Source of the DNA: Isurus oxyrinchus
Lineage: Eukaryota
Assembly (NCBI GenBank): GCA_026770705.1
Contig: JANJGN010000121.1
Location: forward strand, 496,001-560,000
Length of the DNA: 64,000 nucleotides
Direction: 5' to 3'
How positions within the stretch are numbered: the first letter of the stretch is position 1; every line of letters begins with the position of its first letter. A model generated the notes under the pieces. The model did not search any database and was not told the origin of the DNA. It worked only from the letters and a program-made list of their open reading frames with translations. Positions 10,436-59,687 of the stretch are shown here, in pieces. A program made the position numbers and the translations under genes.

Positions 10436-10520
10436 CCAGGACCTGTCCGACTGCTCGCCTGGGGAGGAACTGCCCACACGCTCTGCTTGGGCTGAATGAC
10501 CTCTTCCTGTGCTGCTCCCT
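10436..10520 (-). other. G1 85-nt upstream (5'UTR) exon
   Basis: GG|gtaagt donor ~410 nt upstream of the leader acceptor; same cassette precedes every leader. Confidence 0.7.
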
Positions 10521-10562
10521 CTGTGTGTTTAATTAGAAAGGGTGGATGTGTCACTGTGAGAC

Positions 10563-13140: not shown

Positions 13141-13253
13141 CTCTGATACGAAGGTGATTCTAACCAGGACACTGACCAGTTTGATTACAACTTAACACAA
13201 CATCACACGTTATTTGTCCGCACTGACTGACCAGATTGTTGCTTTACAAAGCT

Positions 13254-13393
13254 TCAAACAGTCTGTCGACTTCCTTTCACTGTTTGTCTCTCCCAGACAC
13301 AGACTCCAGTGATAGTGATAACCACAGCCACAAGGAATATCACAGCTCGTATTCCCAGGATCAGGATCACATGCAGAATCTCTCCTCCACTGT
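13254..13393 (-). CDS. G2 terminal TM exon with intramembrane Arg and short tail (activating type)
   Basis: ttctctag acceptor; phase-1 translation (D)SGGEILHVILILGIRAVIFLVAVVITITGVCVWERQTVKGSRQTV*. Near-identical copy at 59548. Confidence 0.88.
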
Positions 13394-15061
13394 CTAGAGA
13401 ACACACAGAAAGAAATCATCACTGACTCTCCGCTTTCAATCTCTCACTCTGGCTGAACAATCAAGCTTCATATCACTGCAACATTTGCTGTAATATTGAC
13501 CCATCCACTGGGATTCAATGTGGAATGAATGTTTTCATTGTAAACACTCTAAGAGTGGACAATCGGAACTTTCCCCTTAGCGTGGAACATTGGTGAGAAT
13601 GGATCATTGTGCTGTTGGACTCCCTGTCCAATGTTACTCTCCATCGCTGTGTACAGGATTGTGCTGTAGAAAATTCTGGAAACGTTTAGTGCAGGGTGGA
13701 AATCCATCTCGGACGCGTGTGCGAATCGAGCAGAATCGAGATGGACTTCCCCACGGACTTACACCCCCCGCTTAATAAACAGTTCCAATCTTTACCCAGA
13801 GAGAGGGGAGAATGTGGAACTCACTCCCACAGGGATTGGTTGAGGTGAACAGTATCGATGTATTTAAGGGGCAGGAGGGTCGGTAACCAGAGGGACACAG
13901 ATTGACCAACTGGAGGGGGAGATGATGAGAATTTGTTTTGACAGAGCGAGTTGTTGTGATCTGGAAGGTGCTGCCTGAAAGGGCGGTGGAAGCAGATTCA
14001 ATAGGAACTTTCAAAAGGGAAATTGGATAAACACTTGAAGGAGGAAGATGGGGGCAAAGTGGAGTGGTGGTTAGTGGATCTGATTGGATAGAACATTGAA
14101 AGACCTGGCACAGGCACAGTGGGCTGAATGGCCTCCTCCTGTGCTGTATCATTCTCCGCTTCCATGATCTCTCCCCCAGTCAGTAACCACTCCAGATCCC
14201 TCTTGAAGGCGACAGAGAAACAGGAACTACCACACCCACTGACAGCACATTCTCAAGGATCCCTACTCTCTGGGAAAAGATGAACTCCCCAACATCCAGC
14301 CTATTCCTGCTTCCCAGAGAGTGTAAACCCTTCAGGGAGGCACTGAGGAAGTTTTCAATAAAATGAATTATCAAATCTATCATTTGAGAAATAATTTAAT
14401 TCTGATGAACTCACAGCTTGTGTAGCAAACTGGGAAGTGGAGTTGCTTGAAAAGCTGGGAAACACAAGGATTAAGTGCTACAATGCCACCACTGGTGGGA
14501 GACTGTAACTACAGCGTGACGTTTACATAGGCAGTCATCATTATAAACAGGGGCATTGGACATACTGGGAAATATGTGCACTGGAAAGGTGAGTAAATGA
14601 TGTAAGATTTTCACCAGCAGGAATTCTCTAACTAAACCTCTCCACTTCTCTCTTACTCTCAGATACACAAACAAAATCACACAGAATCAGATAAGGAGGA
14701 GTTGGGGCCGGTGATTGTTCGAAGGGTTAGCTTTCAGGAAGCTTCTTAAAGGGAGAGAGAGAGTTGGAGAGGCAGAGAGTATCTGTGAGTGTCTCTATGC
14801 ATCTGAGTGTCTGTAATAGACTTTGTAATTTCCATTTCTTCCATAAACATGATTGGGAACACAAATCCCAGAATCCAGGCCAACTCTCCAGTGCAGTACT
14901 CAGGTAAGCCACAGGGCAGTGTGTGCTAGTGTGTTTGTTTGTGAGTGTGTCTTTGTAATTGCTCATACATGTGTGTCTGCACGTGTCTATTTAGTTCTGT
15001 ATATTTGTGTGTGTTTGTGCAATGTTTGAATCTGAGAGAGATGTTGTCTGTGTACACTCAC

Positions 15062-15214
15062 GTTCCACAGTGACGGTTATGAACCCCTCCACTGCTCCAT
15101 GTTCATTCTCTGCCACACACTGATAGTCTCCAGTGTCCCGATATGTAATGGGAGGAATCACCAACCACAGCTCATTGTTGGAACTTGTTCTGTTCATTTG
15201 GACATTAAGATGTC
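15062..15214 (-). pseudogene. G2 truncated second C2 exon (3' half only)
   Basis: HLNVQMNRTSSNNELWLV...DTGDYQCVAENEHG is retained. The acceptor and 5' half are replaced by unrelated ~180 bp, with an in-frame TGA just upstream. Confidence 0.8.
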
Positions 15215-15537: not shown

Positions 15538-15834
15538 CTTGCACAGTTAGTACGAGGGTCCGCTCCGATGAAACAGATGGATATCTCACTCTGCAGCTGA
15601 GAGTGTGTCCGTGGTGTTTGAGTGATGGGATCAGGGTCAGAACAGAAGTATAGGTCAGAGTGACACCATGCTGAGTTACAGTGTTTGAGACTGATCCAGG
15701 TACGTCAGTGGGAGTGTCCCAGGTTAAGACAGGTGCTGCTGTTCCATTGCACGTTGTGTTGAAGGTGCAGCTTACATCCACACACTTTCCTGCAATAATT
15801 TCAGCAGGGAATATCATGGGTTTATCTGTGAAAT
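15538..15834 (-). CDS. G2 first C2-set Ig exon (297 nt, phase 1-1)
   Basis: gttag/gtaagt; DFTDKPMIFP...VSCTFNTTCNG...LTW...LSCRVRY...LTVQ, Siglec domain-2 pattern. Confidence 0.92.
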
Positions 15835-16693: not shown

Positions 16694-17068
16694 CAGAAAC
16701 ATGAAGCTGGGTTACAGGGTAATAGTTATGGCTCGGACCATTGTCAAATTCTATTCTGAAAAAATAAGGTCCTGCATCTTCCCGTCTGATGTTGTTTATA
16801 ATCAGGGAACAGTCGCCATCTTTCAGGTCTCCACACAGCCGGGTCCGATGGCGGAATCTTTGATCCCTGTGACTGTGACCCTCAGAGTGAAAGGCTATAG
16901 ACCGTTTCGGCTGTGGGTTCCCATCTATTCCTTTCAACCAGATTCCGACACGTGATCTCCCTACGAAATTTGATAAGTAACTGTAATGACATGGAATCTG
17001 TACACAGGAACCTTCCTGCGCTGTCACCTCTCGTGGAGTGTCACCTTTCCACTCTTGTGACAGTCCAA
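16694..17068 (-). CDS. G2 single V-set exon (375 nt)
   Basis: Canonical splice sites, open frame, YFFRIE. Confidence 0.92.
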
Positions 17069-17766: not shown

Positions 17767-17806
17767 CTTGGAGAAGTGACAGGAGGAAGTAAGATTTCCC
17801 GATCAT
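17767..17806 (-). CDS. G2 leader exon CDS, MIGKSYFLLSLLQ
   Basis: ATG, phase-1 donor gtaat. Confidence 0.87.
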
Positions 17807-18256: not shown

Positions 18257-18341
18257 CCAGGACCTGTCCGACTGCTTGCCTGGGGAGGAACTGCCCACAC
18301 GCTCTGCTTGGGCTGAATGACCTCTTCCTGTGCTGCTCCCT
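18257..18341 (-). other. G2 85-nt upstream exon; PU.1 motif at 18384-18396
   Basis: Paralog of 10436-10520. Confidence 0.7.
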
Positions 18342-18619
18342 CTGTGTATTTAATTAGAAAGGGTTGATGTGTCTCTGTGAGACAAAATGAGGAAGTTGGA
18401 TCAAAGTGACAGAGCAGCTCATGTTTTGAGATGTTGGTGAGCTGTTAACCGTTTGTGTATTGACCCTGTGGTGATATTTCTGCTCACAGGTGGACAGTCA
18501 TTGACCAGGAGTTTCTCCTGTGGGTCAGTGGGTTTCACAGCCGAATTCAGGGGGTCAGAATGTTGTGGGGTTCAAGACCCGATTCAGGGGACGTCTGCCC
18601 CACAGAGTACACTGAAATT

Positions 18620-18948: not shown

Positions 18949-19033
18949 CCAGGACCTGTCCGACTGCTCGCCTAGGGAGGAACTGCCCACACGCTCTGCT
19001 TGGGCTGAATGACCTCTTCCTGTGCTGCTCCCT
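18949..19033 (-). other. Extra copy of the 85-nt exon upstream of G2
   Basis: Same sequence and donor; PU.1 motif degenerate (GAGGATGT). Confidence 0.65.
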
Positions 19034-19189
19034 CTGTGTGTTTAATTAGAAAGGGTGGATGTGTCTCTGTGAGTCAAAATGAGGATGTGCTTGGTACCAA
19101 GTGAGAAAGCAGCTCTTTGCCTCGCACAGTTAGAAAACTGTTAACCCTTTGCGTGCCAAGAATGTGGATGAAGGGCTATCGACTGTTCA

Positions 19190-22516: not shown

Positions 22517-22614
22517 CTGTAATAGAAACAGAAATGATCAGAGTGACAATCAGAGTGATCAGTGTTTAGTATTATTGATCCAAATCGAAAATTCCACCCA
22601 CAATAGATACATTA

Positions 22615-24580
22615 ATTATTGATACTGAACAGGGTTTGATTATTGATTCTGAACAGTGTTTGATTATTGATTGTGAACAGTGTTTGATTATTGATACTGA
22701 ACGGGGTTTGATTACTGATTCTGAACGGGGTTTGATTATTGATACTGAACGGAGTTTGATTATTGATTCTGAACGGGGTTTGATTATTGATTCTGAACGA
22801 GGTTTGAATATTGACACTGAATGGGGTTTGATTATTGATCCTGAACAGGGTTTGATTATTGATCCTGAAAGGGGTTTGATTATTGATACAGAACAGTGTT
22901 TGATTATTGATACTGAACAGGGTTTGATTATTGATTCTGAACAGTGTTTGATTATTGATACTGAACGGGGTTTGATTATTGATTCTGAACAGGGTTTGAT
23001 TATTGATTCTGAATGGGGTTTGATTATTGATACTGAACGGGGTTTGATTATGGATTCTGAATGGGGTTTGATTATTGATTCTGAATGGGGTTTGATTATT
23101 GATCCTGAACAGGGTTTGATTATTGATTCTGAAAGGGGTTTGATTATTGATTCTGAAAGGGGTTTGATTATGGATTCTGAACGGGGTTTGATTATTGATC
23201 CTGAACAGGGTTTGATTATTGATCCTGAAAGGGGTTTGATTATGGATTCTGAAAGGGGTTTGATTATGGATTCTGAACGGGGTTTGATTATTGATACTGA
23301 ACGGGGTTTGATTATTGATTCTGAAAGGGGTTTGATTATTGATACTGAACGGGGTTTGATTATTGATTCTGAACGGCGTTTGATTATTGATACTGAACGG
23401 GGTTTGATTATTGATTCTGAATGGCGTTTGATTATTGATACTGAACGGGGTTTGATTATTGACATTGAACGGGGTTTGATTATTGATTCTAAATGGTGTT
23501 TGATTATTGATTCTAAACGTTGTTTGATTATTGAACCTGAATGGAGTTTGATTATTGATTCTGAACTGGGGTTGATTATTGATACTTAACGGGGTTTGAT
23601 TATTGACATTGAACGGGGTTTGATTATTGATTCTAAATGGTGTTTGATTATTGATTCTAAACGGTGTTTGATTATTGAATCTGAATGGAGTTTGATTATT
23701 GATACTGAACAGTGTTTGATTATTGATTCTGAACAGTGTTTGATTACTGATTCTGAAAGGGGGTTGATTATTGATACTGAACGGTGTTTGATTATTGATT
23801 CCGAACGGGGTTTGATTATTAATTCTGAACGGGGTTTGATTATTGATACTGAATGGTGTTTGATTATTGATTCTGAATGGGGTTTGATTATTGATTCTAA
23901 ACGGTGTTTGATTATTGAACCTGAACGGAGTTTGATTATTGATACTGAACAGGGTTTGATTATTGATTCTGAAAGGGGGTTGATTATTGATACTGAACGG
24001 GGTTTGATTATTGATTCTGAACGGGGTTTGATTATAGATACTGAATGGTGTTTGATTATTGATTCTGAATGGGGTTTGATTATTGATACTGAACGGGGTT
24101 TGTTTATTAATTCTGAACGGGGTTTGATTATTGATTCTGAACGGGTTTTGATTATTGATACTGAACGGGGTTTGATTATTGATTCTAAACGATGTTTGAT
24201 TATTGAACCTGAACGGAGTTTGATTATTGATTCTGAACAGTGTTTGATTATTGATTCTGAAAGGGGGTTGATTTTTGATACTGAACGGGGTTTGATTATT
24301 AATTCTGAATGGGGTTTGATTATTGATACTGAATGATGTTTGATTATTGATTCTGAACGGGGTTTGATTATTGATACTGAATGGGTTTTGATTATTGATT
24401 CTGAACGGGGTTTGATTATTGATTCTGAACGGGGTTTGAGTATTGATTCTGAACGGGGTTTGATTATTGATACTGAACGGGGTTTGATTATTGATACTGA
24501 ACGGGGTGTGATTATTGATTCTGAACGGGGTTTGATTATTGATACTGATCGGGGTTTGATTATTGATTCTGAACGGTGTT
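22615..24580. repeat. 24-bp minisatellite (ttgattattgattctgaacggggt), roughly 80 copies, in the last intron of G3
   Basis: Directly visible. Confidence 0.97.
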
Positions 24581-26218: not shown

Positions 26219-26315
26219 TTTCTCACACACTTGAAAATGAAGAATCCACTCAGTCCAACATTCAAACAGATTCCAGCTCCAAGCAATCCTGCTTTCCATT
26301 CATTGGAATCTCGCC
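26219..26315 (-). CDS. G3 transmembrane exon (97 nt, phase 1-2), (R)RDSNEWKAGLLGAGICLNVGLSGFFIFKCVR
   Basis: ttttacag/gtaagt; 20-aa uncharged Gly-rich segment followed by basic residues, similar in style to CD33-type TM exons. Confidence 0.82.
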
Positions 26316-28929: not shown

Positions 28930-29211
28930 ATTCCACAGTGTTGGTTCTGAATCCCTCCACTGCTCCATGTTCATTCTCTGCCACACACTGATAGTCTCCA
29001 GTGTCCCTGGATGTAACGTGAGGAATCACCAACCACAGCTCATTGTTGGAACTTGTTCTGTTCATTGGGACATTAAGATGTCGCCACGTCAGGTTAGAAG
29101 CTGGGAAGCTCTTGACAGAGCAGATTATCACTGCAGAATTCCCCTCAATTATATTGATCGATGAAGCATTAATCACATCAAGAGAAGTAATTGAGAGATT
29201 CTGTGGTGCAT
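28930..29211 (-). CDS. G3 second C2 exon (282 nt, phase 1-1)
   Basis: (D)APQNLSI...YQCVAENEHG...TVE; ttttag acceptor, GT donor at the gap edge. Confidence 0.85.
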
Positions 29212-37164: not shown

Positions 37165-37249
37165 CCAGGACCTGTCCGACTGCTCGCCTGGGGAGGAACT
37201 GCCCACACGCTCTGCTTGGGCTGAATGACCTCTTCCTGTGCTGATCCAT
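37165..37249 (-). other. G3 85-nt upstream exon; PU.1 motif at 37292-37304
   Basis: Paralog of 10436-10520. Confidence 0.7.
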
Positions 37250-40280: not shown

Positions 40281-42631
40281 TGTTCCAAATTTATGTTTTA
40301 TATATTCATTCATCCATGGGAAGTGGGCATCACTGGCTAGGCCAGCATTTATGGCCCATCCCTAATTACCTTGAGAAGGTGGTGGTGAGCTGCCTTCCTG
40401 AACCTCTGCACTCCATGTGGTGTAGGTACACCCACAATGCAGTTAGAGAAGGAAGTCCAAGATTTTGACCAAGTGGCAGTGAAGGGACGGCGATATATTT
40501 CAAAATCAGGATGATGTGTGTCTTGGAGGCGAACTTCCAGGTGGTGGTGTTCCCCTATGCCTGCTGCCCTTGTCCTTCTCAATGGTAGAGGTCGTGGGAT
40601 TGGAAGGTGCTGTTGAAGGAACCTTGCTGAGTTGCTGAAGTTCATGTTGTAGATGGGACACACTGCTGCCACTGTGCATTGACGATGGAGGGAGTGAGTG
40701 TTGCTGTGGTTGAGGGGGAGCCAATCAAGCGGGGCTGCTTTGTCCAGGGTGGTGTCGAGCTTCTTGAGTGTTGTTGGAGCTGCACTCATCCGGGCAAGTG
40801 GAGAGTATTCCATTCACACTCCTGCCTTGTGCTATGTTGATGATGGACAGGATTTGAGGAGTCAGGAGGTGAGTTACTCACCGCAGGATTCCCAGCCTCT
40901 GAGCTGCTCTTGTAGCCACAATGTTTATGTGGCTGACCCAGTTCAGATTCTCGTCAATGGTAACCCCCAGGCTTTTGATATTCGGGGATTCAGTGATGGT
41001 GCTGCCATTGAATGTCAAGGGGAGATGGTTAGATTCTCTCTTGTGTGCATTCAGATTAAGAACCTTTCTGTCTTTTCCCCATTTCCCCTACTCTGACCTT
41101 ATTTGCTGGGACACTGGTTGATGCTGGTTTCAGTCTCAGTTTGTCTCAGTTGGTCACACTCTGGCCTCTGTCTCGAGACTAATGTTCCCTCTTGGTAGTG
41201 ACAGTGATGGGGGTGTTGGGGAGGGTGTGGATATTGACCCCACTGCTCCCCCTCCCCCACTCCACCATTCTATCCTGGGATACCTGCCAGGATCCTTGTT
41301 CCAGCTGCAATGGGCAGCCCTTCCACACTTTCCTGTGGGCCCCGCACTTCATGTGTAAAAGCGCTAAGTTAGAGCAGGGATGGAGAAATAAACAGAGGGC
41401 ATGGGATGAGTGTGGGGGTCTCACAGCCAGAACTGATCCTGCCCTCAACTCTGTGGAAGGGGGGAGGTTTCACCAGCTCTCTGTCTTAACAGCATCGTAA
41501 CCACAGTGTGAAGATTGTCCCCATTCCCTGTATCTTAATAATATTGTAAAGACATCTGGGAGATAGCCTGCAGTCTCTGAAAAAGAATTTGGTGTGTTTG
41601 CAGCACCACCACTGGCAAGAGAGTGTAAGTACAGTGTGACATGTTTACATGAGAAATTTTCATGATAAATGTGCACACAGGAATTTACATAATTTGTTGG
41701 GGAAATGCAATGACATGAATTAACAGATTGGAGCAGGAAGGTTGTCCCAGAGTAAGCTGTTTAATAAAAATATATCTGTACAGAGTTGTCTGGGCATTTC
41801 AATCCCTTGTGACAATAAATGTAATATTATAGAAAATGCAAAAGCTTCTTGTAATCTATCACAGAATAAACAAGTTGCAGAATTCAGAAAGCACATTCTG
41901 AAATGTTAACAAAATTCAGTGACGTCACATTTCTGCTAATTACTATTCAACCATGTTGGCTGCACGCAGTCAGGCAGTCCCTCGGTTGTGAGGTGTCCAC
42001 ACAGCAGGACAGGGATGCATCAGCATCAAAGGACATGCTTAGTTGTTGCCGTGCAATGCATTTATTGCGAGCCTGTTGCACACACGCCCTGTCAAAGGAG
42101 CCTCCTTGGTTCCATTCTGAATCGAGGCAGGTCCAAGATACTACAACAACTTGCATTAACATAGCACCTTTAATGTAGCAAACTGTGCCAAAACTCTTTA
42201 GGGGATTGCTAACCACATATAAATCCATCTCTGAGACTCATAATGAGATATTAGGGACAGGTGACAAAAAGCTGAGTTAACAAAGCCAGTTAATAAGGAC
42301 CATGTTAAATGAGGAGAGAGAGAGAGCGATAGACAGAGAAGCAGAGGGAGAGAGACAGGGAGAGAGAGAGAGCGATAGACAGAGAAGCAGAGTGAGAGAG
42401 ACACAGAGAGAGATAGAGAGACAGGGACAGAGAGAGAGACACTGAATCTCTGTCCCCAATGACTCAGCATCAATTCGTTACTGGGGAAACATCACCAACC
42501 ACAGACCCATTCAGTCCCTTCCTCCCTCTCTCCCCCTCTCCCCCAGTGGGTTGCCTCATGTTCCAAGGAATCATAATCCCTGGCCACACCCACAAACCTC
42601 CTCACCCCCTCTCCCCATTTCACACTCAATT

Positions 42632-42874
42632 TCACTTGAATCTGATCTGTGCGTATTCCGTCTCCTCTTCCCTGTGGACAGACCCATCACCACTGGGCAC
42701 CCTGAAGACTTGGGGATTGGCGTAGAGAAGGTCGGCGGGATTGTCAGGGTTCCCATGTCCAGCATCGCCTCCCACTGCACCTTCAGAGAGACCCCGGGGA
42801 GCTGGGGTCTCCCCCTCACTAGTTGTGTCTCTGGTTGCGTTCCGGGGCTCAGTAATCAGCACGTTCTGTTTACC
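42632..42874 (-). CDS. Terminal cytoplasmic exon T1 (phase 0), GKQNVLITEPR...DLLYANP...EETEYAQIRFK*
   Basis: tttctctgtag acceptor; distal ITSM TEYAQI as in CD33-type Siglec tails; AATAAA at ~42061-42066. No parent ectodomain found in the window. Confidence 0.75.
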   Translation of the reverse strand, partial: GKQNVLITEPRNATRDTTSEGETPAPRGLSEGAVGGDAGHGNPDNPADLLYANPQVFRVPSGDGSVHREEETEYAQIRFK

Positions 42875-43019
42875 CTACAGAGAAATGGAAACAGAAGACA
42901 TCCTCACATCATTTACTGGCACTGATAGGGTTAAATTATTGTGCAGCCTCGTTACTGTCAGTCGTGGCTCAGTGGGTTTAACTCTCCTTCCCATGTCTTA
43001 TGATAGAAACCACCTAAGG

Positions 43020-43205
43020 CATGTGCAGCACTCTCTCAGTACTGACCCTCCGACAGTGCAGTGCTCCCTCGGTACTGACCCTCCGGCAGTGCAGTACTCC
43101 CTCAGTACTGACCCTCCGGCAGTGCAGTACTCCCTCAGTACTGACCCTCCGACAATGTAGCACTCCCTCAGTACTGACCCTCTGTCAGTCTCGCACTCCC
43201 TCGGT
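43020..43205. repeat. 33-bp tandem array
   Basis: Visible; paralogous arrays at 46005-46290 and 48955-49730. Confidence 0.88.
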
Positions 43206-43331
43206 AATGGCTCTGGCGAGTGACGGCTTGGATTCTGCACACAGGTGCCTGGTGTGAGGCTCAATAACATGCACCTTGTAATCAGAGAGAGGATGAGAGA
43301 GAGGGATAGAGATGAAGGGACAGAGACAGAG

Positions 43332-44089
43332 TGTTATGAATCTATTAATGTATGTAATGTAATTGGAAATTGTCTATTTAGACAGAAGTTCAGTCTGTGG
43401 GTATGTTTGTGTGTGTTTTAATTGGACTAAAGCCAGCCAGTCTGGGTACTTTGATGTATCATAGTTTTGAGATGTAAACAAAGAGGTAAAGTGGTAATTT
43501 GCATTTTTAAATAGAACATTCAATGTCGGGGGGTGAAATCTTAAACCAATCAACGTTTATATTACTAATAAAATTGAGACTGTGAAAGGGGATTTATTGT
43601 TAAAAGAGGTGTAGTTCAAAGGTCCTGATGATACAATGAGAATTTACATTCAAATAGAAGCGCTGGGTATAACTTGAGCAGTTTTGTGTGTGCAGAGCAG
43701 AGGCTTGTAACATCAAAGCAGCTGTAAGCCTGCACCTGTCTGCAAAGGAACCAAAGTGAAAGGAACCTCATTTGGAATTTGTGAGGTGAAAATGCTTTGC
43801 CTGGAATCTGCTTAAAGTCTATGGGTTGTCTTAGAGGAGATTAGTTTAAGAATTTGTTAAAAAGTTATGATAATACTAGTTTGTAGCCATGTGCATATGT
43901 TTAACTTGTGTAAATTAATAAATGTCTCAAGTAGTTTGATATAAAACCATCTTGAGAACTGGTGGTCTTATTCCTGAATTTAAAGCTGCATCTCACACAT
44001 TCCATTGGGAAATATAGGTTATGACAGTTGTTTAAAGTTTCCCTCTGGGATTTTAAACAACAGCCTTTACCAGTTGCTGTGTCATAACA
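43332..44089 (+). mobile_element. Solo LTR (~760 bp)
   Basis: Perfect 8-bp inverted termini TGTTATGA...TCATAACA, near-TSD cagag/gagag, internal AATAAA; duplicate at 46417-47174. Confidence 0.75.
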
Positions 44090-44224
44090 GAGAGACAGCA
44101 TGGTACTGAACCATTGCTGACTCCACAGGTACAAATCAGTGGGTAACTGGGCTGGGAATCTGGGACATGTGTTGTCTACACACTGAGATTGAAGCTTTGG
44201 AGTGAGTGTAAACAGTTCCTGTAC

Positions 44225-44306
44225 CTGGTGCTTCACAGAGAGTGGACTGGGGGTCAATGCAATGTCTCTGGTCCCTGAAACTCTCTCCTCCATCGCTGTC
44301 TTTCTC
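44225..44306 (-). CDS. Juxtamembrane exon J1 (82 nt, phase 2-0), RKTAMEERVSGTRDIALTPSPLSVKHQ
   Basis: ttgcag/gtacag; phases fit TM (phase 2) to terminal exon (phase 0). Confidence 0.65.
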
Positions 44307-45234
44307 CTGCAATAACACAATATCACACTGTGGTTATCATATAGCAGAGAGTCAGTGCAGCACAGACACAGAGCACACTGTAACCTTACACCAATGACTC
44401 GACTGTCTCTTTAAATCAGTTCTGCACAAAGCACAGAATTAAGAAGCTCGACACCATCCAGGACAAAGCAGCTCGATTGATCGACACCCCATCCCCCACA
44501 TTAAACATTCACTCCCTCCACCATGAACACACAGTGGCAGCAGTGTGTGTACCATCTACAAGATGCACTGCAGCAACTCAGCAAGGCTCCTTCAACAGCA
44601 CCTTCCAAACCCACGACCTCTACCATCTAGAAGGACAAGGGCAGCAGACACATGGGAACACCACCACCTGGAAGTTCCCCTCCAAGTCACTCACCATCCT
44701 GACTTGGAAATATATCACTTCACTGTCACTGGGTCAAAACCCTGGATCTCCCTCTCTAACAGCACTGTGGGTGTACCTACACCACATGGACTGCAGCGGG
44801 TCAAGAAGGCAGCTCACCACCACCTTCTCAAGGGGCAATTAGAGATGGGCAATTAATAGCGGCCTCACCAGTGACAGCCACATTCGATGAAAGAATTTAA
44901 AATCTCACAGCTCAGGAGGAAGCCACTCAGCCCATCGTGCCTGTGCTGGCCCTTTGAAAAAACTGACCAATTAGTCCCACTACCCAGACTGTTCAATCAT
45001 TCCTGATGGTTATAACCACCACTGTCGATGGACCCTCTGATTTACCATTCTGAATCGAGGCAGATCAACTTTCCTGCAACAACTTGCATTTATATGGCAC
45101 ACTTAATGTAATAAACTGTCCCAAATCTCTTCAGGGGATTTTTACCTACATATAAATCCATCTCTGAGACACATAATGAGCTATTAGGGACAGGTGACAA
45201 AAAGCTGATTTCACAAAGCCAGTTAATAAGGACC

Positions 45235-45386
45235 NNNNNNNNNNNNNNNNNNNNNNNNNNNNNNNNNNNNNNNNNNNNNNNNNNNNNNNNNNNNNNNNNN
45301 NNNNNNNNNNNNNNNNNNNNNNNNNNNNNNNNNNNNNNNNNNNNNNNNNNNNNNNNNNNNNNNNNNNNNNNNNNNNNNNNNNNNNN
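45235..45386. other. Assembly gap, probably a GA microsatellite
   Basis: Ns; the paralogous site at 42310-42440 is a (GA/CA)n tract. Confidence 0.95.
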
Positions 45387-45612
45387 GAGAGACAGAGTAC
45401 GAGAGAGAGAGACACTGAATCTCTGTCCCCAATGACTCAGCATCAAGTCGTCACTGGGGAAACATTTCATTCCAAACCACACCAACCACAGACCCATTCA
45501 GTCCCTTCCTCCCTCTCTCCCCCTCTCCCCCAGTGGGTTGTCTCATGTTCCCAAGAATCTTCATCCCTGCCACCACCCACACACCTCCTGACCCCCTCTC
45601 CCCGTTTCACAC

Positions 45613-45861
45613 TCAGTTTCGCTTGAATCTGATCTGTGCGTATTCCGTCTGCTCTTCCCTGTGGACAGACCCATCACCACTGGTCACCCTGAAGACTTGG
45701 GGATTGGTGTAGAGAAGCTCGTTGGGATTGTCAGGGTTCCCATGTCCAGCATCGCCTCCCACTGCACATTCAGAGAGACCCCGGGGAGCTGGGGTCTCCC
45801 CCTCACTAGTTGTGTCTCTGGTTGTGTTCCGGGGCTCAGTAATCAGCACGTTCTGTTTACC
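45613..45861 (-). CDS. Terminal cytoplasmic exon T2, ...ELLYTNP...EQTEYAQIRFKRN*
   Basis: Intact paralog of T1. Confidence 0.72.
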   Translation of the reverse strand, partial: GKQNVLITEPRNTTRDTTSEGETPAPRGLSECAVGGDAGHGNPDNPNELLYTNPQVFRVTSGDGSVHREEQTEYAQIRFKRN

Positions 45862-47309
45862 CTACAGAGAAATGGAAACAGAAGACATCCTCACATCATT
45901 TACTGGCACTGATAGGGTTAAATTATTGTGCAGCCTGGTTAGTGTCAGTCGTGGGTCAGTGGGTTTAAACCTCTCTCACATGTCTTATGAAAGAAAACAC
46001 CTATGGCAGTGCAGTGCTCCCTCAGTACTGACCCTTCGATAGTGCAGCACTTCCTCAATGCTGACCATCCAACAGTGCAGCACTCCCTCAGTACTGACCC
46101 TCCAACAGTGCAGCGCTCCCTCAGTACTGACCCTCCAACAGTGCAGCGCTCCCTCAGTACTGACCCTCCGACAGTACAGGTCTTCCTCAGTACTGACCCT
46201 CTGACAGTGCAGCACTCCCTCAGTACTGACCCTCTGACAGTGCAGCACTCCCTCAGTACTGACCCTCTGTCAGTCTCGCACTCCCTCGGTAATGGCTCTG
46301 GCGAGTGTCGGCTTGGATTCTGCACTCAAGTGCCTGGTGTGAGGCTCAATAACATGAATCTTGTAATCAGAGAGAGGATGAGAGAGAGAGAGAGAGATGA
46401 AGGGTCAGAGACAGAGCGTTATGAATCTATTAATGTATGTATTGTAATTGGAAATTGTCTTTTTAAACAGAGGTTTAGTCTGTGGGTGTGTGTGTGTGTG
46501 TTTTAATTGGAATAAAGCCAGCCGGTCTGGGTACTTTGATGTATAGTAGTTTTGAGATGTAAACAAAGAGGTAAAGAGGCATATTGCATTTTTAAAAGGA
46601 GGATTCAAAGCCTGGGAGTGAATTCTTAAACCAATCAATGTTTATATTACTAATAAAATTGATACTATGAAACGGGATTTATTGTTAGAAGAGATGGAGA
46701 TCAAAGGTCCTGATGATACAATGAGAATTTACTTACAAAGAGAAGCACTGGGTATAACTTGAGCAGTTTTGTGTGTGCAGAGCAGAGGCTTGTAACATCA
46801 AAGCAGCTGTAAGCCTACACCTGTCTGCAAAAGAACCAAAGTGAAAGGAACCTCATTTGGAATTTGTGAGGTGAAAATGCTTTGCTTGGAATCTGCTTAA
46901 AGTCTATGGGTTGTCTTAGAGGACGTTAGTTTGGGAATTTGTTAAAAAGTTATGATAGTACTAGATTGTAGCCATGTGCATATGATTAACTTGTGAAAAT
47001 TAATAAATGTCTCATGTAGTTTGATATAAACCCATCTCAAGAACTGATGGTGTTATTCCTGAATTTAGAGCTGCATCTCAAACATTCCACTGGGAAATAT
47101 AGGTTATGACACTTGTTTAAAGTTTCCCTCTGGGATTTTAAACAACAGCCTTTAGCAGTCGCTGTGTCATAACAGAGAGACAGCATGATACTGAACCATT
47201 GCTGACTCCACAGGTACAAATCAGTGGGTAACTGGGCAGGGAATCTGGGACACATGTTGTCTACACACTGAGATTGAAGCTTTGGAGTGAGTGTAAACAG
47301 CTCCTGTAC

Positions 47310-47391
47310 CTGGTGCTTCACAGAGAGTGGACTGGGAGTCAAGGCAATGTCACTGGTCCCTGAAACTCTCTCCTCCATCGCTGTCTTTCTC
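47310..47391 (-). CDS. Juxtamembrane exon J2 (82 nt)
   Basis: Intact paralog of J1. Confidence 0.62.
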
Positions 47392-48564
47392 CTGTAATAA
47401 CACAATATCACACTGTGGTTATCATATAGCAGAGAGTCAGTGTAGCACAGACACAGAGCCCACTGTAATCTTAGACCAACGACTGGGACTGTCTCTTTAA
47501 ATCAGTTCTATACAAAGCACAGAATCAAGAAGCTTGACACCATCCAGGACAAAGCAGCCCGATTGATCTACACCCCATCCACCACATTAAACATTCACTC
47601 CCTCCACAACGAACACACAGTGGAAGCAGTGTGTGTACCATCTACAAGATGCACTGCAGCAACTCAGCAAGGCTCCTTCAACAGCACCTTCCAAACCCAC
47701 GACCTCTACCATCTAGAAGGACAAGGGCAGCAGACACATGGGAACACCACCACCTGGAAGTTCCCCTCCAAGTCACTCACCATCCTGACTTGGAAATATA
47801 TCATCGTTCCTTCACTGTCGCTGGGTCAAAATCCTGGAACTCCCTCCCTAACAGCACTGTGGGTGTACCTACACCACATGGACTGCAGCGGGTCAAGAAG
47901 GCTGATCACCACCACCTTCTCAAGGGCAATTAGGGATGGGCATTAATGCTGGCATCACCAGTGACAGCCACATTCGATGTAAGAATTAAAAATCTCACAG
48001 CACAATGTATTTATTGGGATCCTCCTGCACACACGCCCTGTCGAAGGACCCTTTGTGGTTCCATTGTTAATCGAAGCAGATCAGACTTACTGCAACTACT
48101 TGCATTTATATAGCACCTTTAATGTAGCAAAATGTCCCAAGGCTCATCCGGGAATTGTTAGTCACATCTTCACCTGACTCTGAGGCACATGAGGAGATAT
48201 AAGGGACAGGAGACCAACAGCTGAGTCAACAAAGTCAGTTATTAACGGGCATCTTAAAGGAGGAGCTGGAGATAGAGAATGAGTGACAGACACAGAAAGA
48301 AAGACAAAGAGAGGGAGAGAGAGAACAAGAGAGCGAGAGAGAGAGAGAAAGAGACAGAGAGAGACAGTGAATCTCTATCCCCAGTGGCTCAGCATCCAGT
48401 CCTCTCTGGAGAAGCATTTCATTCCAAACCACACCAACCGCAGCCCAATCCCATCCCTTCCTCCCTCTCTCCCCCTCTCCCCCAGTGGGTTGTTTCCTGT
48501 TCCCAGGAATCTCAATCACTACCCCCAGCCCCACACCTCCTCACTCCCACTCCCCATTTCTCAT

Positions 48565-48813
48565 TCAGTTATGCTCGAACCTGATCTGTGCGTATTCCGT
48601 CTCCTCTTCCCTGTGGACAGACCCATCATCACTGGACATCCTCAATACTTGGGGATTGGCGTAGAGAAGGCCGTCGGGATTGTCGATGTGCCAATGTCCA
48701 GCATCGCCTCCCAATGCACCTTCAGAGAGACCCCGGGGAGCTGGGGTCTCCCCCTCGCTAGTTGTGTCTCTGGTTGTGTTCCGGGGCTCAGAAATCAGCA
48801 CGTTCTGTTTACC
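48565..48813 (-). CDS. Terminal cytoplasmic exon T3, ...GLLYANP...EETEYAQIRFEHN*
   Basis: Intact paralog of T1; no J exon upstream. Confidence 0.7.
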   Translation of the reverse strand, partial: GKQNVLISEPRNTTRDTTSEGETPAPRGLSEGALGGDAGHWHIDNPDGLLYANPQVLRMSSDDGSVHREEETEYAQIRFEHN

Positions 48814-48954
48814 CTACAGAGAAATGGAAACAGAAGACATCCTCACATTATTTACTGGCACTGATAGGGTTAAATTAATGAGCAGCCTCGTTAGTGTCAG
48901 TCTTGTCTCAGTGGGTTTAACCCTCTCTCTCATGTCATCTGAAAGAAACCACCT

Positions 48955-49964: not shown

Positions 49965-50006
49965 GTCTCACAGTGACACATCCACCCTTTCTAATTAAAC
50001 ACACAG

Positions 50007-50091
50007 AGGGAGCAGCACAGGAAGAGGTCATTCAGCCCAAGCAGAGCGTGTGGGCAGTTCCTCCCCAGGCGAGCAGTCGGACAGGTCCTGG
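50007..50091 (+). other. G4 85-nt upstream exon
   Basis: GG|gtaagt donor at 50092. Confidence 0.7.
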
Positions 50092-56567: not shown

Positions 56568-56933
56568 CTGAACCCTCGCAAGAGTGGAAAGGTGACACTC
56601 CACGAGAGGTGACAGTGCAGGAAGGTTCCTGTGTACAGATTCCATGTCATTACAGTTATCCATCGTGTCTGGAAAACCAACCGTGAGGTGGAGTCTGGTT
56701 TAATAATGAGGAATGGAGAACATCGTCTATAGCCTTTCACTCCAAGGATCACAGTCACGAGTTACCACGGTTCCACCATCGGACCCGGCTGTCTGGAGAC
56801 CTGAAAGATGGCGACTGTTCCCTGATTATAAACAACATCAGACGGGAAGATGCGGGTCCTTATTTTTTCAGAATAGAATTTGACAATGGTCCGAGCCATA
56901 ACTATTACCCTGTAACCCAGCTTCACGTTTCTG
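56568..56933 (+). pseudogene. G4 second V exon, inactivated
   Basis: CGA>TGA at 56684-56686 and donor GT>AT at 56934. Confidence 0.9.
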
Positions 56934-59547: not shown

Positions 59548-59687
59548 ACAGTGGAGGAGAGATTCTGCACGTGATCCTGATCCTGGGAATACGAGCTGTG
59601 ATATTCCTTGTGGCTGTGGTTATCACTATCGCTGGAGTCTGTGTCTGGGAGAGACAAACAGTGAAAGGAAGTCGACAGACTGTTTGA
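59548..59687 (+). CDS. G4 terminal TM exon with Arg (CGA 59592-59594) and short tail
   Basis: (D)SGGEILHVILILGIRAVIFLVAVVITIAGVCVWERQTVKGSRQTV*; AATAAA at 60071-60076. Confidence 0.88.

Follow-up and report, generated by a model that had tools for sequence, protein, structure and literature searches.

A terminal exon with a transmembrane arginine in a shark Siglec-like gene: a probable activating paired-receptor member and a possible portable exon

Does the short exon at 13254..13393, which lies under an open reading frame rich in cysteine, encode the membrane anchor of an activating immune receptor, and if so, to which adaptor would it couple and where did it come from? The window, meaning the whole 64,000-nucleotide stretch of Isurus oxyrinchus DNA that was analysed, holds the following features around this exon.

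13254..13393, minus strand: terminal exon for the transmembrane (TM) segment and tail, phase 1; Arg codon 13349-13347, stop 13256-13254
13210..13419, minus strand: Cys-rich shadow ORF, 69 aa; ATG in the intron, upstream of the acceptor
15063..15212, minus strand: second C2 exon, 3' half only, without its 5' half; bypassed by the observed joint
15538..15834, minus strand: C2-set exon (PF08205), 293/297 identical to the inhibitory neighbour's C2; private extra Cys at 15784
16694..17068, minus strand: V-set exon of Siglec type, F-strand Arg present; private extra Cys at 16834
17767..17806, minus strand: coding part of the leader exon; joint 17068/17767 seen in runs
59548..59687, plus strand: second Arg-TM exon, an inverted paralog with A where the 13254..13393 copy has T

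The exon is 140 nt long, its acceptor AG stands at 13395-13394 on the minus strand, and in phase 1 it translates to SGGEILHVILILGIRAVIFLVAVVITITGVCVWERQTVKGSRQTV-stop, with a single Arg within an apolar run, a His eight residues ahead of that Arg, a tail of 12 residues and no Tyr anywhere. The original prediction had read it in this way from the letters alone, with TM and tail in one terminal exon and a T/A difference between two copies; the acceptor, the open 283-aa frame, the exon structure and the observed C2-to-TM joint bear out the first points, and the A at 59548-59687 the last. Its placement of the Arg in the outer half stands as to the single Arg and is refined as to depth, as in the 12 best-scoring hydrophobic windows (19-23 residues) the Arg takes positions 6-11, which is outer to central and not the outer edge. 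The V exon nearest to the second copy (56568-56933) contains a stop and has no GT donor. A search of the ESM Atlas with the TM exon gave no match at >=0.9.

The 13254..13393 exon ends an open Siglec-like gene of leader-V-C2-TM layout, the four exons of which (40+375+297+140 nt) join through canonical splice sites into one open frame of 283 aa. Pfam matches of the ectodomain are V-set, Ig_CD22 and C2-set_2, and PDB matches of the V exon at E<=1e-8 number 16, every one of them a Siglec or MAG; sialoadhesin and Siglec-5 are the best, and the F-strand Arg aligns with the Arg of sialoadhesin FRFE. The Siglec Cys pattern, consisting of a B-E intra-sheet pair and a V-C2 inter-domain pair, is present; Cys 35, 40, 100 and 161, 167, 219 align with CD33 and sialoadhesin, and two additional Cys (92, 156) are particular to this copy's gene. 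Judged by a V-set domain that is most Siglec-like, the C2-set domain after it, the F-strand Arg and the Cys pattern, the predicted ectodomain is that of a Siglec, and its V domain may well bind sialic acid. The closest named proteins are Siglec-like models of Carcharodon carcharias, 89-93% identical in the TM exon; the label 'CD33-like' for shark genes is given by similarity, and NCBI names likewise by similarity only.

The exon belongs to a large family. An exact 33-mer of it occurs 210 times in the assembly, a degenerate nine-codon pattern of the Arg core 217 times (reversed control 0 for each) and a V-exon 33-mer 539 times, while the neighbour's uncharged TM exon has 335 candidates, of which 40 were scored; these totals are perhaps up to twofold too high, as both haplotypes may be in the assembly, which is suspected because the FcR-gamma exon lies on two small contigs. 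Since copies were chosen by exact match across the Arg, its conservation within the genome is no evidence. Among the matches listed, contig C52 (4.17 Mb) carries 64 Arg-core copies, which were examined with ~9 kb upstream each, the path being assessed from V to TM with the leader excluded. The TM exon is open in 63/64, 25 copies have an open path from their nearest V exon through to the TM and 39 a broken one, and the F-strand Arg is found in 51 of the 60 open V exons upstream (4 other residues, 5 unparsed). Among the open C52 Arg-TM genes, many carry V exons in tandem, two or three per gene. The C52 V exons vary chiefly in the B-C, C-C' and F-G segments, and several have an extra Cys in the B-C loop.

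Transcript evidence comes from 8 examined runs of 22 listed, presumed to be RNA because introns are removed exactly. The C2-to-TM joint 13393/15538 is found in 7/8 runs (X1-X4, X12, X7, X6; 4 studies; organisms A and B), with >=31 letters on the short side in 4 of the 7, and one 850-nt X12 contig spans the entire C2 exon plus the TM exon; in run X15 the TM exon has no coverage. The V-C2 joint 15834/16694 is likewise present in 7/8 runs and the leader-V joint 17068/17767 in 4/8, and all three coincide with GT-AG intron ends in run contigs. No joint to the half C2 exon (15063-15212) is among the 15 best-supported joints per set (35 and 12 further). The junction on whose presence in transcripts the prediction had been made to depend is thus there, at family level: C2-to-TM splicing holds for the family, and the joint is not assignable to the 13254..13393 copy.

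That the family is real and this particular copy recently dead or unexpressed is a serious possibility, which we hold somewhat short of probable. V exons >=91% like that at 16694..17068 (n=25; 84 loci) are open in 1/25, so that 24 of 25 close sisters are broken and the 13254..13393 gene is a rare open member of a subfamily that is mostly dead. Moreover, neither private extra Cys is seen in transcript contigs, the common allele standing at 15784 in 8/8 runs and at 16834 in 4/4 runs examined there. The absence of private alleles is weak evidence against expression of this copy, as contigs lose rare variants and derive from other animals. Four open exons with canonical splice sites argue for a living gene, as does a leader-V joint matching its layout in half of the runs.

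The neighbouring gene, of inhibitory type, provides the comparison by which the Arg-TM gene can be classed.

26219..26315, minus strand: uncharged TM exon of the inhibitory-type neighbour (taken as G3), tail exons next
24814-24710 and ~22519-22400, minus strand: G3 tail exons with Tyr motifs

It lies on the same strand and comprises a leader (36714), two V, C2, TM (26315-26219) and the tail exons with Tyr motifs. The C2 exons of the two genes are 98.7% identical and the V exons 83-85%, whereas their TM exons have no similarity, with a protein score of 19 vs 17.5+/-3.5 for shuffles and a DNA score of 20 vs 18.4+/-2.4; the earlier proposal that the Arg-TM exon has an origin separate from the G3 TM exon is upheld by scores at shuffle level. 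The arrangement is a paired-receptor layout, with near-identical C2 exons and unrelated TM exons, and the Arg-TM gene has the attributes of an activating-type member, namely a basic TM residue, a short tail without a Tyr motif and a linked, near-identical inhibitory gene. A tree was built from 40 C2 domains, namely the two window exons and those of 38 hand-labelled proteins with clear TM, of 97. On it, 8 changes of the Arg-TM label are required vs a shuffled mean of 8.3, and the starred branches, 6 of 36 in a weakly resolved tree, force at least 3 label changes. The ectodomains appear to cluster by lineage, not by signalling end. Their homogenisation could have come about through gene conversion or through recent duplication with shuffling, and both fit.

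We consider it quite likely that the spliced shark Siglec-like receptor is an activating member of a paired-receptor system that couples to an ITAM adaptor, the identity of the adaptor aside. The TM Arg would pair with the two Asp of a dimeric ITAM adaptor, DAP12 being the likeliest, and adaptor assembly would lead to Syk-type signalling by which immune cells may be switched on. Siglec-14, for its part, pairs an Arg with DAP12. As to which adaptor is used, DAP12 is the leading candidate and is proposed tentatively; FcR-gamma or CD3-zeta is possible, and DAP10, like the use of no adaptor at all, is improbable.

A basic TM residue pairs with the two Asp of a dimeric adaptor. In partners of DAP12 it lies at TM position 7-12, with Lys preferred, and in those of FcR-gamma an Arg stands near TM position 3 (PMC1440944), often in an NxxR motif (PMC2413239). 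In KIR, a Lys-to-Arg exchange leaves 15% of DAP12 assembly, and a KIR with Arg at position 9 failed to assemble with FcR-gamma (PMC1440944). Siglec-14 is linked to DAP12 in the literature covered. The shark Arg would fit DAP12 by its depth (6-11) and FcR-gamma by the type of residue.

The view that the same receptor uses FcR-gamma (or CD3-zeta), not DAP12, is less likely than not and still deserves weight. Arg is the residue that FcR-gamma favours (PMC1440944), and the genome has FcR-gamma-like TM exons with Asp (G000:C1723:88553-88636 and C1648:27629-27712), 97% identical to a Carcharodon protein named FcR-gamma-like, as well as a CD3-zeta-like TM exon with Asp (C18:75872273). This contradicts an older (2014) report that describes sharks as without FcR-gamma (PMC4016189). 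Weak searches, which fall short of demonstrating absence, turned up neither DAP12 nor DAP10: a degenerate motif pattern gave 5 matches vs 3 in the control, none convincing, Pfam gave no DAP10 in the genome, and the Pfam ITAM model had no match anywhere. Both DAP12 and DAP10 occur in fish and frog (PMC4536121). Against FcR-gamma stand the missing NxxR at the start of the TM, where no Asn lies three residues before the Arg (PMC2413239), the position of the Arg at 6-11, deeper than 3, and the failure of the Arg-9 KIR noted above. DAP12 is kept as the first candidate.

Conservation beyond the mako genome bears both on function and on origin. When 64 TM segments were compared with the Arg-TM exon, 16 scored 113-183 and the others <=50; the Arg is kept in all 16 high-scoring proteins (>100), and none has a tail Tyr. 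The Arg keepers come from three shark orders (Carcharodon; Scyliorhinus and Mustelus; Chiloscyllium, Hemiscyllium and Rhincodon), and a profile search of 1.84 billion representatives returned 9 matches, all from named sharks. The exon terminates CD33-like models, CD22/sialoadhesin-like carpet-shark models (P0006-P0009, P0098, P0100; predicted models) and two SLAM-type models from other sharks (P0101, P0102), in both of which the full V domain is missing. In the source genome, a SLAM/CD2-type gene on the 118-Mb contig C21 also ends in a homologous exon, the only pattern match on contigs numbered below C52 among the matches listed (100 of 217).

13394..13689, minus strand: intron stretch that continues the exon's alignment with the region around the TM exon of the SLAM-type gene on G000:C21

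With 67% identity along 434 bp (E 5e-30), this alignment takes in ~295 bp of the intron upstream of the exon; there is no difference in the nine-codon core around the Arg, and identity is 79% in the exon vs 73% in the intron, values too close to indicate selection. The C21 gene is broken: stops interrupt its leader and V exon, and its TM has acquired polar changes. At a distance of 35 kb lies a similar gene with open V, C2 and uncharged TM-like frames, the best PDB matches of which are SLAMF6 and SLAMF5. The broken gene looks like a decayed activating partner. The interval G000:C21:89407800-89447640 holds two adjacent SLAM/CD2-type genes with similar V exons.

Because intron DNA is shared by the Siglec and SLAM loci, the exon would have been copied between receptor families at the DNA level, and not by convergence or retro-copying; the direction was probably from Siglec to SLAM, as suggested only by the wider use of the exon among Siglecs. 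On balance, we lean towards the view that galeomorph sharks deploy the Arg-anchor exon as a portable activation cassette. Together with its intron it would have been copied at the DNA level onto CD33-like Siglecs, CD22/sialoadhesin-like genes and a SLAM/CD2-type gene, making activating partners for unrelated families; in the mako it would sit in a paired Siglec array where activating-type genes number on the order of a hundred or more. A stingray protein with Arg-TM, Hypanus sabinus P0088, was considered as a bearer of the same exon, and homology is unsupported, with a score of 48 vs 50 for an uncharged TM; it scores 62-69 against uncharged ray TMs (P0070 and P0075 compared). It was also one of six rows in one TM profile. 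An independent origin of its activating form, with Arg-TM and a short tail, may be equally likely.

The Arg-TM receptor might also be a signalling-dead decoy or an adhesion molecule, its Arg serving homo-dimerisation or ER retention. The tail has no motif and adaptor binding is a prediction, which leave some room for it; an Arg invariant in three shark orders, a nine-codon core identical even in the distant SLAM-linked copy and a layout like that of known paired receptors make it unlikely, and coupling to an adaptor is retained as the preferred reading.

The Cys-rich ORF is a frame shadow of the hydrophobic TM frame, as had been suspected. Each of its six Cys codons within the exon arises from a T in third position followed by the GT that opens the next Val codon, and a stop interrupts the ORF in the distant C21 homolog; as a gene it was rejected on these two grounds. 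In one copy (G000:C52:536578-546577) a frameshift puts the last part of the TM in the Cys-rich frame. That the Cys-rich ORF is the true product can be dismissed almost entirely, as its being open in 38/39 close copies comes from copies picked at 99-100% identity, all upstream exons end in phase 1 so that the observed joint leads into the TM frame, and it is the TM frame that is conserved across species.

Siglec-15 is made of V and one C2 domain, which matches the domain count of the shark gene. Its TM likewise has a basic residue, and coupling to DAP10/12 has been described for it (PMC7226832). Siglec-15 is, however, a conserved gene with Lys, whereas the shark exon has Arg, and the shark ectodomain, with P0003 as the query, matches CD33, MAG and Siglec-5 at 1e-26 to 1e-23 vs Siglec-15 at 8e-11; identity as Siglec-15 was rejected because of the Arg and because CD33 and MAG rank far above it.

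Paired activating and inhibitory Siglecs have been described from primates, and the paired-receptor design as such is known (PMC13358205). Primate Siglec-5/14 and Siglec-11/16 likewise combine near-identical ectodomains with either a Tyr-motif tail or a basic TM and short tail (PMC4042635, PMC6288428, PMC13358205), their ectodomains group by lineage as the shark C2 domains do (PMC4042635, PMC6288428), and in these pairs the activating member is often null, which resembles the broken shark copies. Humans have two such pairs, whereas the shark has hundreds of exon copies and many Arg-TM genes in which the V exon is doubled or tripled in tandem. In fish, as described in PMC7226832, four conserved Siglecs are regularly present and inhibitory CD33-related Siglecs absent. 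In Xenopus, activating XFL genes have TM and short tail in one exon, carry a TM Arg and are intermingled with inhibitory genes, as in the shark, and the XFL/LRC TM type is common to two receptor families, like the shark exon (PMC2413239). The shark exon differs from XFL/LRC in having no NxxR, a deeper Arg and a Siglec ectodomain; in addition, the XFL/KIRL sharing was interpreted as common origin (PMC2413239), whereas the shared intron DNA in the shark indicates later copying.

No description of shark paired Siglecs, of the array or of the exon was found in the literature covered, most subscription journals lying outside the search; the passages of PMC8455134 covered contain no account of shark paired Siglecs or an Arg-TM exon, and Siglec and adaptor terms are absent from the one supplementary file of PMC3964593 covered. 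Correct gene models, named by similarity, are already present at NCBI for related sharks.

An Arg-TM alone is ordinary; the shark case stands out through the size of its array and through intron DNA that speaks for a shared exon. That a shark has both types in one array, with hundreds of exon copies, suggests that the pathogen-driven paired design is old, or has re-arisen in cartilaginous fish on a far larger scale. Activating TMs are usually held to arise through point mutation within each family (PMC1440944), and the intron DNA shared by Siglec and SLAM genes points to a second route, namely transfer of a whole exon. With its Arg as deep as in DAP12 partners, this type I receptor also lends itself naturally to testing the Lys/Arg adaptor rule in a jawed vertebrate that branched off early.

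The rest of the window adds several observations on the inhibitory genes. At 28931-29211 (minus strand) lies the first of the inhibitory neighbour's two duplicated C2 exons, the 3' end of which is altered and adjoins an N stretch, with no canonical donor at the expected place. The intron between that gene's two tail exons contains ~2 kb of a 24-bp tandem repeat (22612-24580). Neither a V nor a C2 exon was found at 33.3-54.4 kb of the window, and within it, at 42629-48837 (minus strand), lie the tail exons of a second inhibitory Siglec type in three copies. The first cytoplasmic exon of the inhibitory gene is copied at 10437-10526, 18258-18347, 18950-19039, 37166-37246 and 50001-50090, most copies lie ~500 bp upstream of a leader exon, and this segment seems to have been duplicated as a unit.
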